A DNA stretch of 63,714 nucleotides, the filler included, from Candidatus Tectimicrobiota bacterium (lineage in GTDB: Bacteria; JACPSX01), in assembly GCA_016193065.1 (NCBI GenBank). It is 4 parts of 4 records of this genome, joined end to end, with 100 filler letters (N's around TTAATTAATTAA, not from the genome) between each part and the next. Parts side by side here need not be neighbours in the genome. Positions count along the whole stretch, not along the records: positions 1 to 7,791 come from JACPSX010000105.1; 3 more parts are not named here. The stretch is one strand, 5' to 3'. The position numbers and the translations under genes were made by a program. Position 1 is the first letter of the stretch. Every line of letters begins with the position of its first letter. Under the pieces are notes generated by a model. It saw only the letters and a list, made by a program, of their open reading frames with translations, was not told the origin of the DNA and did no database searches. Below, piece after piece: positions 481-10,906 of this stretch.

Positions 481-507
481 AAACGAGGAAAGAAGGCGCG
501 GGTTACA
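481..507 (-). promoter_or_regulatory. Putative ECF-type promoter (TGTAACC-N15-CGTTT) upstream of the second sigma factor
   Basis: Minus strand reads TGTAACC CGCGCCTTCTTTCCT CGTTT, matching the -35 AAC / -10 CGT pattern of ECF promoters. Confidence 0.55.
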
Positions 508-1051
508 GGGAGCCCAAGATTGCTTTAAGGTGTCCTAAGGCGCGATGGAGATTGACCCGGACTGCTCCGGGAGATGTCTCCGTAACGGCCGCAATCTCCT
601 CATGGGTAAGGCCGCCGAACCGGCTGAGGAGAAGCACTTCTCGCTGAGAGGACGGCAGGCAGGCGATGGCTTGTGTGAGCCGTTGCGCGAGCTCCTCACC
701 TTCGATCTTTTGAACCGCTGTGGGCGCTGGATCGGCCAGGCCTTCTAAGAGTTCCGGGACTTGATGCTCCCGGTCAGGTCTCTTCTGACGGAGAATATCC
801 AGTGAGAGGTTTCGTGCGATGGTGAAGAGCCAGGTCCGCAGAGTTGCCGTGGGACGGTAGCGGTCGCGGGCAAGGTAGACCCGAAGAAACGTCTCCTGAA
901 GTAGCTCTTCAGCAATCGCTTGATTTCCGATGTGCCGTAGCAGAAAGTTGAACACCGCCTTGTGGTGTCGCTCATAGAGGATTTGAAACGCGCGGGCGTT
1001 GCCATCGCGTATCTCCTCCATCAACTGCTCATCAGGAGTCTCTGGCGACAT
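503..1051 (-). CDS. ECF RNA polymerase sigma factor
   Basis: DEQLMEEIRDGNARAFQILYERH, AEELLQETFLRV, TWLFTIARN, region-4 LTHEEIAAVTETSPGAVRVNLHRAL; start placed at MSPETP (1051). Confidence 0.92.
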   Translation of the reverse strand: MSPETPDEQLMEEIRDGNARAFQILYERHHKAVFNFLLRHIGNQAIAEELLQETFLRVYLARDRYRPTATLRTWLFTIARNLSLDILRQKRPDREHQVPELLEGLADPAPTAVQKIEGEELAQRLTQAIACLPSSQREVLLLSRFGGLTHEEIAAVTETSPGAVRVNLHRALGHLKAILGSL

Positions 1052-1085: not shown

Positions 1086-1376
1086 TTACCCTTCGATCGG
1101 CTCGGCGGCGAAGGTTCCAAATTCAAAGCTGAGCCGGTAGTGTCGGCCGCAGCATTCGATCCTGTCGCCCGCCTGGGCGCCTTCCGGTACGAAGATCCTC
1201 GTCTCGCATGTCGGACAGGTTACCCAGTGCGCGATGGTTGCCCCCCAGGAATCGTCCTCCTTCCTCAGCCTGAGGAAGAGGCCGGCTCAGTTTGGACAGG
1301 TGATTATGGAACCGTCCGTGGCGCCGGTCGGGACCGGAAGGTCAGCCCCGCAGTCTGGACAGCGAATGGTCTCCAT
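1086..1376 (-). CDS. Putative selenoprotein: 96-aa tandem zinc-ribbon protein (CPDC...CPNU...CPTC...CC)
   Basis: METIRCPDCGADLPVPTGATDGSIITCPN[TGA 1289-1287]AGLFLRLRKEDDSWGATIAHWVTCPTCETRIFVPEGAQAGDRIECCGRHYRLSFEFGTFAAEPIEG*; AAGGAGG RBS; hairpin CTTCCTCA-GGC-TGAGGAAG with loop 16 nt after the TGA. Confidence 0.8.
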
Positions 1377-1385
1377 GCTTCCTCC

Positions 1386-1625
1386 TTACAGTCCCAGCAA
1401 CTGCTGGAGCTTGCCGCGGTCGAACCCCACGACGGGCTCTCCGTTTACCAGGATCACCGGAACGGCGCGAGCACCGGTCAGGCGTACCAGCTCATCCGCG
1501 GCTTCCGGATGATCCAGCAAGTTGACATCTCGAAACGTGACCCCTTTAGACGAAAGAAACTCTTTCGCCGCCTTACACGAACTTCACGTCGGGGAAGAGT
1601 AAACAATGACCTGTCGGTTGCTCAT
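1386..1625 (-). CDS. Putative selenoprotein glutaredoxin (NrdH/YruB-like) with UxxC active site, 79 aa
   Basis: MSNRQVIVYSSPT[TGA 1586-1584]SSCKAAKEFLSSKGVTFRDVNLLDHPEAADELVRLTGARAVPVILVNGEPVVGFDRGKLQQLLGL*; cis-Pro AVP and GFD motifs; AAGGAGG RBS; hairpin GGCGAAAGA-GTT-TCTTTCGTC downstream of the TGA. Confidence 0.9.
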
Positions 1626-1647: not shown

Positions 1648-2058
1648 TCAATCTTTTGCCTCCAGGTCCAGCGCCTCCAGGATTGGGCAGGTGCTGGCGG
1701 GACCCTTGCCGGAACACTGCTCCGCAAGACGATCGAGGCCCTTTCTCATGGCCTGCAGCGTCCGGATCTTCTCTTCGATGTCCTTGATCTTGGCTTGTGC
1801 CCGCCGCAGCACGTCAGCGCAGCGGGCACCGGATGTGGCCCGCAAGGACAGCAGATCCTTGATCTCTTTCAGGGAGAACCCGAGTTCCTGGGCTCGTTTG
1901 ATGAAGCGGATTCTGCGGACGCTGTCCGACGCGAAGGCACGGTAGCCCGACGGTGTACGGGCCGGTCGGGGGAGCAGACCCCTGCGCTCGTAATATCGGA
2001 TCGTCTCGACATGCACCCGGCCCTGCCGGGCCAACTTTCCAATCGTCAGCGCTTCCAT
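1648..2058 (-). CDS. merR: MerR-family divalent heavy-metal-responsive regulator
   Basis: LTIGKLA...VETIRYYERRGLL HTH; Cys80/Cys115/Cys124 with the same spacing as MerR C82/C117/C126; GGAGG RBS. Confidence 0.9.
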   Translation of the reverse strand: MEALTIGKLARQGRVHVETIRYYERRGLLPRPARTPSGYRAFASDSVRRIRFIKRAQELGFSLKEIKDLLSLRATSGARCADVLRRAQAKIKDIEEKIRTLQAMRKGLDRLAEQCSGKGPASTCPILEALDLEAKD

Positions 2059-2080: not shown

Positions 2081-2112
2081 AGTTTAAACCCTGCACCTAG
2101 GTACAGGGTCAA
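2081..2112 (-). promoter_or_regulatory. MerR-type promoter with dyad operator in an elongated spacer
   Basis: Minus strand TTGACC-20 bp-TAAACT; near-perfect dyad ACCCTGTACCTAGGTGCAGGGT at 2088-2109. Confidence 0.88.
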
Positions 2113-7891: not shown

Positions 7892-9038
7892 CCCCTTCCC
7901 GCCGGGGCTGCACGCCAGGCTGCTGCCGAACGGGAACCTCTTGTTCGCCGGCAGGAGCGGCAAGGTGGATCCTCCCGATCGGCCCGGCGTGGGTAAGTAC
8001 CCCATGGGCGGCGCCGCCGGGTGGCTCATCGAGATGGACTGGAACGGGAAGATCCTCTTCCAGTATCGCGACCCGAGCATGCACCATGACTTCCACCCGA
8101 TGCCCAACGGGAACTACATTTACGTGGCCTGGGATAAAGTGCCCAAGGACCTCCAGAACAAGGTACGCGGAGGCTACAAGGGGTCCGAGCACCACTCCGA
8201 CGGGTCCATGTTCGCGGACAAGCTCGTGGAGGTCAACCCCAGGGGCGAGGTCGTCTGGGAATGGCGCGCCATCGATCACTTCGACGTGAACGTTGACATC
8301 ATCGGGCCGGTCCACCCCCGAGAGGAATGGTCCCACTTCAACAACGTGGACGTGATGGAAAACGGCAACATCCTGACGGACGGCCGGCACCTGGACAGCA
8401 TGATGATCATCGACAAGAAGACCGGGAACATCATCTGGCGGTGGGGCAGCGTGGCCTACCTGGATGAGGGCGGGACGATCGAGTTCTGCCGCGGCATCAA
8501 CACCATGGGCGGCCAGCACGACTGCAATGAGATCCCCACGGGGTATCCCGGCGCGGGAAACATCATCTGCTACGACAACGGGATGTACGTGGACGAGTCC
8601 CGAGCCGTCGAGGTGGACCCGAAGACGAACAAGGTCGTCTGGGAGTCGAAGCAGCACGGGAAGTATGCCCGGCTGGGTGGCATTGGGAGGAAACACTTCT
8701 CGAACTTCATCAGCGGCGCGGAGAGGCTCCCCAACGGGAACACCCTGATCACGGACGGCGCCAACGGCCGCATCTTCGAGGTCACCCCGCAGCAGGAGGT
8801 CGTCTGGGAGTACGTGAGCGGGTACTTCACGGCCCCCACCTACCAGGGAGCGATGTTCCGCTCTCACCGGTATGCTGTGGACTACGTGCCGCAGTTCAAG
8901 AACCTGAAGCCCGCCAGGGGTCCCGCCGTGGTGCCCCCGGACGTGTCGAAGTTCCGCGTGGCCCCGCAGGCCGAAAAGGCGAAGGAGGAAGGCAAGGAAA
9001 AAGAGGAAGAGCTGGCTCCTCGGATTCCCAGGTACTGA
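7892..9038 (+). CDS. Arylsulfotransferase (ASST)-like beta-propeller protein, 5' truncated
   Basis: MHHDF, EWSHFN, GGQHD, GNIICYDNG, SGAERLPNGNTLIT motifs. Confidence 0.85.
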
Positions 9039-9415: not shown

Positions 9416-10906
9416 ATGAAAAAGCTTTTCCTCATACTGGCAATATCTTCCTTGGCATTGATTCCGGCAACGCTTCTTGCATTTCCAACCGTCTACCCGA
9501 CCGGAACAACGATCTACAAGCCTGAGAAGTGCTGGAATGGCTACACAGTTTTGCAGAACGCCGGAATCAAGTGGACGGAAGGCCGGGAAGGCGGCACTGT
9601 TTTGATCGACATGAACGGAAACGTTCTCAGCGAGTGGCCGAACATTCATTTCTTTCCGGCCAAGATTTTGCCCGGCGGCCACATCATGGGATACATGGGA
9701 TCCGACGGACCCGGTCACGAGTCGTCCAAGAAGCTGGTCCAGATGGACTGGAACGGCAATGTTGTCTGGCAGTTTGAGATGGCCGGGCAGGAACACGACT
9801 TCCAGAGAGAAGGAAACCCCGTCGGCTACTACGCGCCCGGCATGGAGCCCAAGGTCGACCGGGGAAACACCCTGACCCTCGTCTACAGGAAGAACATCAA
9901 GAAGCCCCAGATCAGCCCCCAGCCTCTGACGGACACGGCGTTCCTGGAAGTGACCTGGGACGGGAGGGTCGTCTGGGAGTGGCTGCAGAGCGATCACTTC
10001 GAGGAGATGGAGTTCAGCGAGGAGGCCAGGAACGCCATGTCCCGATCTCCGAGCGGAGGGGACTGGGCCCACATCAACAACATGAACGTCCTCGGTCCCA
10101 ACACGTGGTACGACATGGGCGACCAGCGCTTCCACCCCGACAACATCATCTATGACGCCCGGGTTCTCAACATTATAGCCATCATCGACAAGAAGACCGG
10201 CAAGCTCGTCTGGAAGGTGGGTCCGGATTACACCGCGACTCCGGCCCTGCGGAAGCTCGGGCAGATCATCGGCCCCCATCAGGCCCACATGATCCCCAGG
10301 GGGCTCCCGGGGGAGGGGAACATCCTGGTTTTCGACAACGGGGGCTTCGCAGGGTACGGTAACCCGAATCCCGGCTCCCCGACCGGCATGTACAACGCCC
10401 TCCGGGATTACTCCCGGGTCATCGAGTTTGATCCGGTGACGATGGAGATCGTCTGGGAGTATTCCATGAGGGCTGCGGGCCACCTGCCGAGAATCGAGGG
10501 CCACAAGTTTTACAGCCCCTACATGAGCGGGGCCCAGCGGCTCCCCAACGGCAACACTCTGATCACGGAAGCTGCCTCGGGTCGCGTTTTTGAGGTAACT
10601 CCGGAGCGGGAGATCGTCTGGGAGTTCGTAAGCCCGTTCTTCTACCCGGGGAACCAGGGGATTGGCGGGGACCCCACACGCCAGTATCCACCCATCAACC
10701 ATCTGTATCGAGCCTACCGGGTCCCTTACGGGTGGGTTCCGCAGGTGAAAAAGCCCAAGGAAACGTCCGTGATTCCTCCTCCCAACTCAGAATTGCGGGT
10801 CCCTCAGAGCGCGCCGGCGACGTCTGTGAAGCCCGCGGAGACGCAGAGACCCGCCAGGAAAGAGGAGAGGGAAGAAGAACAGTATCCCCAACCCCTGAGA
10901 TATTAG
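9416..10906 (+). CDS. Exported arylsulfotransferase (ASST)-like protein
   Basis: Sec signal; FPTVYPTGTTIY, QEHDFQREGNP, DWAHIN, GPHQAHMIP, SGAQRLPNGNTLITE. Confidence 0.9.
   Translation: MKKLFLILAISSLALIPATLLAFPTVYPTGTTIYKPEKCWNGYTVLQNAGIKWTEGREGGTVLIDMNGNVLSEWPNIHFFPAKILPGGHIMGYMGSDGPGHESSKKLVQMDWNGNVVWQFEMAGQEHDFQREGNPVGYYAPGMEPKVDRGNTLTLVYRKNIKKPQISPQPLTDTAFLEVTWDGRVVWEWLQSDHFEEMEFSEEARNAMSRSPSGGDWAHINNMNVLGPNTWYDMGDQRFHPDNIIYDARVLNIIAIIDKKTGKLVWKVGPDYTATPALRKLGQIIGPHQAHMIPRGLPGEGNILVFDNGGFAGYGNPNPGSPTGMYNALRDYSRVIEFDPVTMEIVWEYSMRAAGHLPRIEGHKFYSPYMSGAQRLPNGNTLITEAASGRVFEVTPEREIVWEFVSPFFYPGNQGIGGDPTRQYPPINHLYRAYRVPYGWVPQVKKPKETSVIPPPNSELRVPQSAPATSVKPAETQRPARKEEREEEQYPQPLRY

Follow-up and report, generated by a model that had tools for sequence, protein, structure and literature searches.

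The window, that is, the whole stretch of 63,714 nucleotides analysed here, carries on its minus strand an operon reduced to merR–glutaredoxin–ribbon–sigma, whose features are collected in Table 1. The initial annotation had described the ribbon gene as encoding a 96-aa protein with TGA as residue 30, and we reproduced this protein exactly, but from the minus strand (1376→1086); the plus strand of 1086..1376 gives a translation unrelated to it. The features reported along with the protein were likewise recovered, namely two similar halves (35% identity over 43 residues, E 3e-6), a strong ribosome-binding site 4 nt before the ATG (1387-1381), an 8-bp stem with a GGC loop 16 nt after the TGA, which gains an extra G-U pair, and an ECF sigma gene whose ATG, at 1051, lies 34 nt past the ribbon stop codon. 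Absent from that account was the in-frame TGA of the window glutaredoxin.

Table 1. Features of the ribbon operon and its surroundings in the window.
Feature	Position	Strand	Remarks
ECF sigma factor	503..1051	minus	probably co-transcribed with the ribbon; accessory neighbour, not constant in the family
Doubled LysW-fold zinc ribbon (predicted), 96 aa	1086..1376 (1376→1086)	minus	putative ligands C6, C9, C27, U30 + C54, C57, C75, C76
In-frame TGA, predicted Sec30 in C27-P-N-U30	1287..1289	minus	Cys in 86, TGA in 10 of 96 distinct loci
SECIS-type hairpin of the ribbon gene	1259..1279	minus	8 Watson-Crick pairs + one G-U, GGC loop
Ribosome-binding site AAGGAGG	1381..1387	minus	4 nt before ATG; overlaps the glutaredoxin stop codon
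Glutaredoxin UxxC, 79 aa	1386..1625 (1625→1386)	minus	TGA 1586-1584; Pfam Glutaredoxin 68 bits
SECIS-type hairpin of the glutaredoxin gene	1549..1569	minus	9 pairs, GUU loop; z -1.04, energy unexceptional
MerR-family metal sensor, three cysteines	1648..2058 (2058→1648)	minus	TIGR02051 MerR best, 141.9 bits vs cut-off 150.85
MerR-type promoter	2081..2112	minus	-35 2112-2107, 9-4-9 palindrome 2109-2088, -10 2086-2081, 20-bp spacer

Bacterial SECIS elements, in the model given in the accessible text of PMC13188914, are hairpins with a G in the loop 16-37 nt after the UGA. The hairpin of the ribbon gene agrees with this model, its arms pairing positions 1278-1271 with 1267-1260 and its loop beginning at 16 nt on the minus strand. 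Among the TGA triplets of the whole genome (n=82,105), 0.71% are followed in the same register by a G-loop stem of at least 8 pairs and 0.27% by one of at least 9 pairs, a length that the ribbon hairpin reaches once its G-U pair is counted; the hairpin therefore exceeds what chance would give. Since the 50 nt from the ribbon TGA fold as a whole no better than shuffled sequences (z 0.07), the hairpin was weighed by its position and conservation, not by its energy. Moreover, a contig of run X3 that spans 684-1396 shows zero differences from the window, and for the related contigs that three further studies (X5, X6 and X8) supply, the listed changes include none at codon 1287-1289 or in the stem; a sequencing error is an unlikely source of the TGA.

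A HMMER scan of 1.84 billion representatives returned 84 protein matches to the ribbon, while a word-index homolog search and a search of plasmids returned none. DNA loci were drawn from genomes (21), metagenomes (best 80 of 479) and whole-genome searches, and after removal of one truncated locus and of duplicates 96 distinct loci remained, with the window and a paralog from the same genome counted in. The family was present in 6 of 401 sampled genomes, the Candidatus Tectimicrobiota source genome included, and its recorded hosts are mostly Rokubacteria/Methylomirabilota, with single records from Acidobacteria, Myxococcales, Binatia and Chloroflexota. A genome of the same genus (G001) gave no ribbon match and a glutaredoxin match of only 39%.

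The initial annotation had proposed looking for homologs with Cys at position 30, and this is what the profile search found. Position 30 is Cys in 31/31 chosen near-full-length protein homologs, and codon 30 is TGC or TGT in 86 of the 96 distinct loci and TGA in the remaining 10, a Sec share that is biased low because one of the two metagenome patterns demanded Cys at this position. TAA or TAG was found in none of them; a TAG noted in locus L141 is its ordinary stop. A second TGA, at Cys9, is carried by two relatives, the same-genome paralog (contig C245) and L023, and across the 96 loci Sec was found at positions 9 and 30 only. A stem of at least 6 pairs with a G loop 14-19 nt past the codon accompanies 9/10 TGA forms versus 8/86 Cys forms, a contrast that is partly fitted, because the 14-19 nt register was picked after viewing the Sec forms, and that counts related loci though kin are not independent. 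The two groups were told apart only weakly by an earlier, energy-based SECIS scan with the loop at 16 nt or beyond, which picked up 6/10 Sec and 26/86 Cys forms.

The pairing of Cys with TGA, the SECIS-type hairpin and the presence of SelB and two SelD above cut-off in the source genome uphold the claim of recoding: the ribbon TGA is almost certainly read as selenocysteine, and we are just as confident, on the grounds of comparative sequence analysis, that the gene encodes a real selenoprotein. Were the TGA a true stop, the gene would be a pseudogene or specify a 29-residue peptide. SelA and a credible tRNA-Sec (SelC) were indeed not found in the 86% complete source assembly, and a carrier genome that is 97% complete (G091) is also without a SelA match, which would fit such a reading. 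However, SelA was detected in the same-genus genome G001 and in 8/9 other carrier genomes tested, both SelD genes of the source genome contain a TGA themselves, and a true stop would hardly turn up at the same Cys column of 10 distinct loci throughout the tree, always as TGA and not once as TAA or TAG, with a hairpin that tracks it and with a frame beyond it that is intact and conserved. We therefore consider termination at this codon extremely improbable. The two selenophosphate synthetase genes lie on contigs C120 and C175, and their in-frame TGA codons are accompanied by hairpins. A tRNA-Sec candidate on contig C54 was dropped, as it appeared at a relaxed threshold only, with mismatched stems and no Rfam match, and Rfam tRNA-Sec matches above cut-off were dropped because they coincide with tRNA-Trp and tRNA-Ser calls.

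The AlphaFold2 model of the ribbon is all-beta and confident (pLDDT 94.7), and the closest structures are those of LysW (rmsd 1.2 A over 50 columns; Z 8.1 and 6.6). Each half also matches a LysW structure by sequence, and for one Cys homolog the ESM Atlas gives automatic LysW-domain names only. The early impression of a LysW-like zinc ribbon was thus borne out by structure prediction and by fold searches, which place LysW first, and the protein is predicted to be a small cytoplasmic doubled zinc ribbon. It has the same zinc-ribbon globule as the LysW/ArgW carriers (PF21344, NF041070, TIGR01206; PDB 3VPB, 3WWL) and scores 29 bits with Pfam against a cut-off of 27. It differs from these carriers in that it reaches 58 against the NF041070 cut-off of 75, is doubled and takes Sec, and stands beside mer-like genes, with no lysine-pathway gene among its recurring neighbours. 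The EDWGE tail, which defines LysW as a carrier according to the portion of PMC10433800 consulted, is found neither in the window protein nor in the aligned core of any of the 96 loci, indicating that the ribbon has no carrier glutamate; the only fetched protein with EDWGE is P0073, a single-domain LysW-like match. The FmdB zinc ribbon (TIGR02605, UxxU) is likewise predicted to hold Sec in a zinc-ribbon knuckle (Table 1 of PMC13188914 and the accessible text of PMC9312934). However, FmdB is a single ribbon with another motif, and our protein scores 20.8 bits against the TIGR02605 cut-off of 31.3.

The two lobes are not equally constant. Ligands 6, 27, 54 and 57 are Cys in 96/96 loci and those of the N-terminal lobe hardly vary, while the last ligand pair of the C-terminal lobe is variable, with His at 75 in 6/96 and Gly or Ser at 75/76 in 6/96. 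Given that Sec occurs only in the N-terminal lobe, that the other ligands of this lobe are Cys and that positions 75/76 vary, the N-terminal lobe is the probable reactive site. Sec had been presented at first as a structural metal ligand. A structural role is doubtful, since its confinement to the N-terminal site and the redox selenoprotein that is its constant partner suggest a reactive rather than a structural site.

On a quick tree of 115 rows, the Sec forms stand in scattered places (7 changes), and a single Sec clade was rejected with a p-AU of 0.013 on a quick tree of 41 rows. As the Sec forms make no single clade, Sec was gained or lost several times; moreover, it is not essential in the ribbon, because 86/96 members have Cys in its place even though Sec is used by the proteins encoded beside them. 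This pattern, together with the LysW fold and an acidic pI of about 4.7, would also suit a Zn-stabilised scaffold or adaptor that docks on enzymes like the acidic LysW globule, with Sec as a nearly neutral occasional swap. We find this explanation unlikely, as Sec is seen at just two ligands, both in the same lobe, and is accompanied by a hairpin that fits it. In addition, two distant proteins hold both Sec residues, which suggests selection at the N-terminal site.

The constant partner of the family is the UxxC glutaredoxin and not the ECF sigma factor. It adjoins the ribbon in 81/81 distinct loci having at least 300 nt upstream, where the UxxC was recognised by pattern in 78 and by eye in the other 3, and also in 4/4 distant loci. 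The C245 paralog, L141 and L143 consist of glutaredoxin and ribbon only, with no mer gene found nearby. In the paralog cassette (L020:1604-2150, minus strand), a UxxC glutaredoxin overlaps a ribbon with two CxxU knuckles. Of the hairpins, the first is highly stable (z -4.2), and a gene for an ABC substrate-binding-like protein comes next.

With a redox selenoprotein as its constant partner, the ribbon could itself be a redox component, either an Fe electron carrier of the rubredoxin or desulforedoxin kind or a thiol/selenol switch. In its detailed form, this explanation holds that a flavin disulfide reductase passes electrons to the seleno-glutaredoxin and then to the ribbon, for metal reduction or thiol repair. 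The CxxC...CC arrangement of the C-terminal lobe presumably recalls the desulforedoxin pattern, and the gene directly after the ribbon in L092, L122 and L061 encodes a glutathione-reductase-like flavoprotein whose second redox Cys codon is TGA. Most Sec/Cys pairs, moreover, mark redox sites (PMC13188914). Nevertheless, the best structure and sequence matches are to the Zn protein LysW, rubredoxin or desulforedoxin was not among the listed fold-search matches of the ribbon, His substitutes a ligand in 6/96 loci and the flavoprotein is adjacent in three related loci only, so that we regard a redox role, although it is the main alternative, as a possibility to be kept in mind rather than as a likely one.

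The flavin disulfide reductase is found at L092:506-1846 (plus strand) and also in L122, L061, L145, L146, L147 and L148. This member of the glutathione reductase/MerA superfamily lacks a C-terminal Cys pair, and TGA stands in place of its second redox-active Cys. It falls under every NCBIfam cut-off and has no such entry in the 119-family table of PMC13188914 as accessed; it possibly represents another uncatalogued selenoprotein family.

The ribbon had also been put forward as a metal or redox switch regulating the ECF sigma factor encoded 34 nt downstream. A related sigma follows the ribbon in 4/9 Sec loci and in 0/73 Cys loci (4/82 with enough flank), and also in L064, whose flank is too short for the count; the four aligned sigmas are 50-55% identical. 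Probable co-transcription in the window favours the proposed switch, as does the fact that a homolog of the anti-sigma-like gene present in other loci was not found in the source genome. However, the vast majority of loci lack the sigma, as does the same-genome paralog, three of the four sigma-bearing Sec loci share one clade, and L035, L037, L061, L092 and L096 have an anti-sigma-like gene of their own downstream (so labelled for an HxxxCxxC-like motif, with no family match). When a Cys-form ribbon and the ECF sigma from its own contig (L092) were co-folded, the score was 0.01 against a mark of 0.32, which speaks neither for nor against the switch. The link to sigma is real for a subgroup, but with these counts, one clade and separate anti-sigma-like genes it cannot be the function of the family, and a switch acting on sigma is a very unlikely role for the ribbon. 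Co-induction under metal stress explains the association more simply.

In most other loci, the ribbon belongs to a longer, mer-like operon with the usual order merR – merB-like – glutaredoxin – ribbon – merF-like – merT-like – HMA. MerR is encoded upstream in 31/44 loci, a MerB-like gene lies within 2 kb upstream in 53/60, and a MerF/MerT-like gene comes next in 64/82 (63/73 Cys loci and 1/9 Sec loci). The MerB-like neighbour reaches 100 bits with Pfam MerB and MerF is above cut-off for the one tested, while the MerT-like label is tentative, with one weak match and one protein without a match. The active-site position of the MerB-like protein, which by position is the Cys159 site, is occupied by TGA in 68 loci, where the frame runs on past the codon with its sequence conserved, and by Cys in 1. 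In addition, an HMA protein with UxxU is present in 38/57 loci with enough flank. In loci of the series L031 to L131, the Sec MerB-like lyase is encoded upstream of the ribbon, and some loci add a second, Cys-type MerB alongside. Near the ribbon gene of L140 and L142 are genes for two UxxU HMA proteins and for a MerT-like membrane protein in which two TGA codons in a row replace the Cys-Cys of its family.

MerA, for its part, is above cut-off in 1/23 carrier genomes, and the C-terminal Cys pair of MerA is present in 1/20 best matches (the top match per genome), both counts coming from incomplete assemblies. No MerA-type C-terminus was found in the 104 loci searched, 18 distinct ones of which had 2.5 kb on both sides. 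With such counts, most carriers would need another acceptor of Hg; the fate of Hg(II) in genomes with MerB and without MerA is posed as an open question in the part of PMC8261052 consulted.

The operators differ between the window and the other loci. In the latter, we recovered 30 distinct operators with a 6-3-6 palindrome in a 19-bp spacer, unlike the mercury consensus; we take these sites to resemble those of CadR/PbrR, so that the metal handled by the family may be another one. The window operator, on the other hand, agrees at 16/18 positions with the firmicute mercury MerR consensus, as given in the accessible text of PMC1526738, and a pattern search of the genome gave no second site of this kind. 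MerB and MerF/MerT homologs of the ribbon-operon type were not found in this 86% complete genome, in a search whose control matched nowhere. On contig C46 (L149:3802-4934, minus strand), a C-terminal fragment of MerA that includes the Cys pair is accompanied by a MerC-like ORF (by eye, with no family match) and a MerE-like ORF; together they make up a conventional mer cluster that is interrupted where the contig ends.

Given the mer-like context and the mercury-type MerR operator, which lend support to the soft-metal role suggested at first, we propose that the ribbon is a cytoplasmic acceptor of Hg(II) or another soft metal that is reset by the seleno-glutaredoxin, a function read from gene context to which we assign a probability of about 0.5. 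At rest, both lobes would hold Zn, the C-terminal one being the more structural and the N-terminal one, the sole taker of Sec, serving as the exchange site. Sensing of the metal by MerR would switch the operon on, after which the ribbon would accept Hg(II) delivered by the transporters, set free by the MerB-like lyase or bound to poisoned protein thiols, and release Zn. The glutaredoxin would then strip the metal or re-reduce the site, making the ribbon reusable. Sec would confer a higher Hg affinity and a faster exchange, and Cys versions would do the same job less avidly; in the source genome, the metal could pass to a MerA encoded elsewhere.

Several observations favour such an acceptor: the restriction of Sec/Cys pairing to positions 30 and 9, the constancy of the UxxC glutaredoxin, the mer-like genes, the window operator, the rarity of MerA among carriers and the contrast between a variable last ligand pair in the C-terminal lobe and nearly invariant ligands in the N-terminal one. 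Others speak against it. A MerF/MerT gene comes next in 1/9 Sec loci, and the paralog, L141 and L143 are without mer genes. The source genome yielded no MerB, MerF or MerT of the ribbon type, and a MerA fragment is present there; the 6-3-6 operators of the other loci, the 86/96 Cys members and the SelA and tRNA-Sec not found in the source assembly count on the same side.

Further, an undescribed pathway for mercury or organometals, based on selenium and taking the place of MerA, may be built around the ribbon and the seleno-glutaredoxin, an extension which we put forward tentatively and judge less probable than the acceptor role itself. A Sec lyase would cleave the organometal, Sec ligands would relay the ion via the HMA protein, the ribbon and the glutaredoxin, and the metal would finally be sequestered or be reduced without mercuric reductase. 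If so, Rokubacteria of soil and groundwater would commonly possess the pathway, which would have been overlooked because annotation truncates up to four of its genes at UGA.

Two known systems invite comparison. The classical mer operon (MerR, MerT, MerP, MerF, MerB, MerA) is homologous in its regulator, promoter architecture, transporters, HMA and lyase; the ribbon operon differs in being mostly without MerA, in adding a glutaredoxin and a doubled ribbon, and in placing Sec at several metal-binding sites. The SAO system, as described in the accessible part of bioRxiv 10.1101/2022.07.06.499078, is a selenoprotein cluster around the MerB-like SaoL (NF040728), with Sec at Cys159, and resembles the ribbon cluster in its multiple selenoproteins, its MerB-like Sec lyase and its thioredoxin-like selenoprotein. 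However, two MerB-like neighbours of the ribbon score 64.8 and 36.9 against the SaoL cut-off of 140 and have a single U rather than CU. In the same source, SAO has an ABC importer and occurs in anaerobes, whereas the ribbon cluster has MerR, MerF/MerT-like and HMA genes and is hosted by Rokubacteria/Methylomirabilota and a few others.

The ribbon had been flagged as a candidate new selenoprotein family. In favour of novelty, no LysW-like selenoprotein family appears in Table 1 of PMC13188914 (119 prokaryotic families) as accessed, no selenoprotein model of NCBIfam 20.0 fits the ribbon, and the family was not found in the accessible portions of the literature, including PMC12013277, PMC13326102 and PMC9312934; Haft and Tolstoy 2025, the journal version of Haft and Gwadz, BSepDB Table S2 and the bioRxiv supplements could list it. 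That Sec can sit in a zinc-ribbon knuckle is itself no new prediction, however, since the sources cited above make it for the FmdB UxxU protein. Among small proteins with Sec as presumed metal ligand, which NF041115 (UxxU HMA), NF041197 (dual CXXC) and NF045648 (MbdU) share with the ribbon, NF041197 hits 2/30 ribbon members (best E 0.011) and does not match the window protein. NF041115 and NF045648 are neither among the 25 of 37 families listed nor among the 21 matches of the window protein. The HMA neighbour of the ribbon matches NF041115 best, with 76.5 bits on a partial sequence against a cut-off of 95. MerB-like, MerT-like and HMA proteins with Sec have each been catalogued already; what appears to be new is the ribbon family, its constant association with a seleno-glutaredoxin and the assembly of all these parts into a mer-like operon mostly without MerA.

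The ribbon thereby adds to the prokaryotic selenoproteome a family with Sec as predicted ligand of a four-coordinate ribbon site, and its natural all-Cys, one-Sec and two-Sec forms offer a ready series on the effect of selenium at a metal site. It also marks a mer-like operon in which lyase, glutaredoxin and HMA protein are selenoproteins and MerA is mostly absent. Several selenium-using proteins in one cluster point to a putative selenium-based handling of toxic soft metals, and the operon is a testable candidate answer to the question of Hg(II) handling in MerB-without-MerA cells, as raised in the consulted part of PMC8261052. Surveys of merB by catalytic cysteines would overlook MerB-like genes truncated at UGA.

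Elsewhere in the window, an OsmC-like frame (labelled by eye) at 2383-2712 on the plus strand contains an in-frame TGA close to its beginning and shows no clear start codon; it is either a broken gene or another recoded one. A second ECF sigma gene at 1-408 on the minus strand is cut by the contig end and shares about 91% DNA identity with a copy on contig C104. Tandem arylsulfotransferase-family (ASST) genes occupy 7941-9038 and 9416-10906 on the plus strand.
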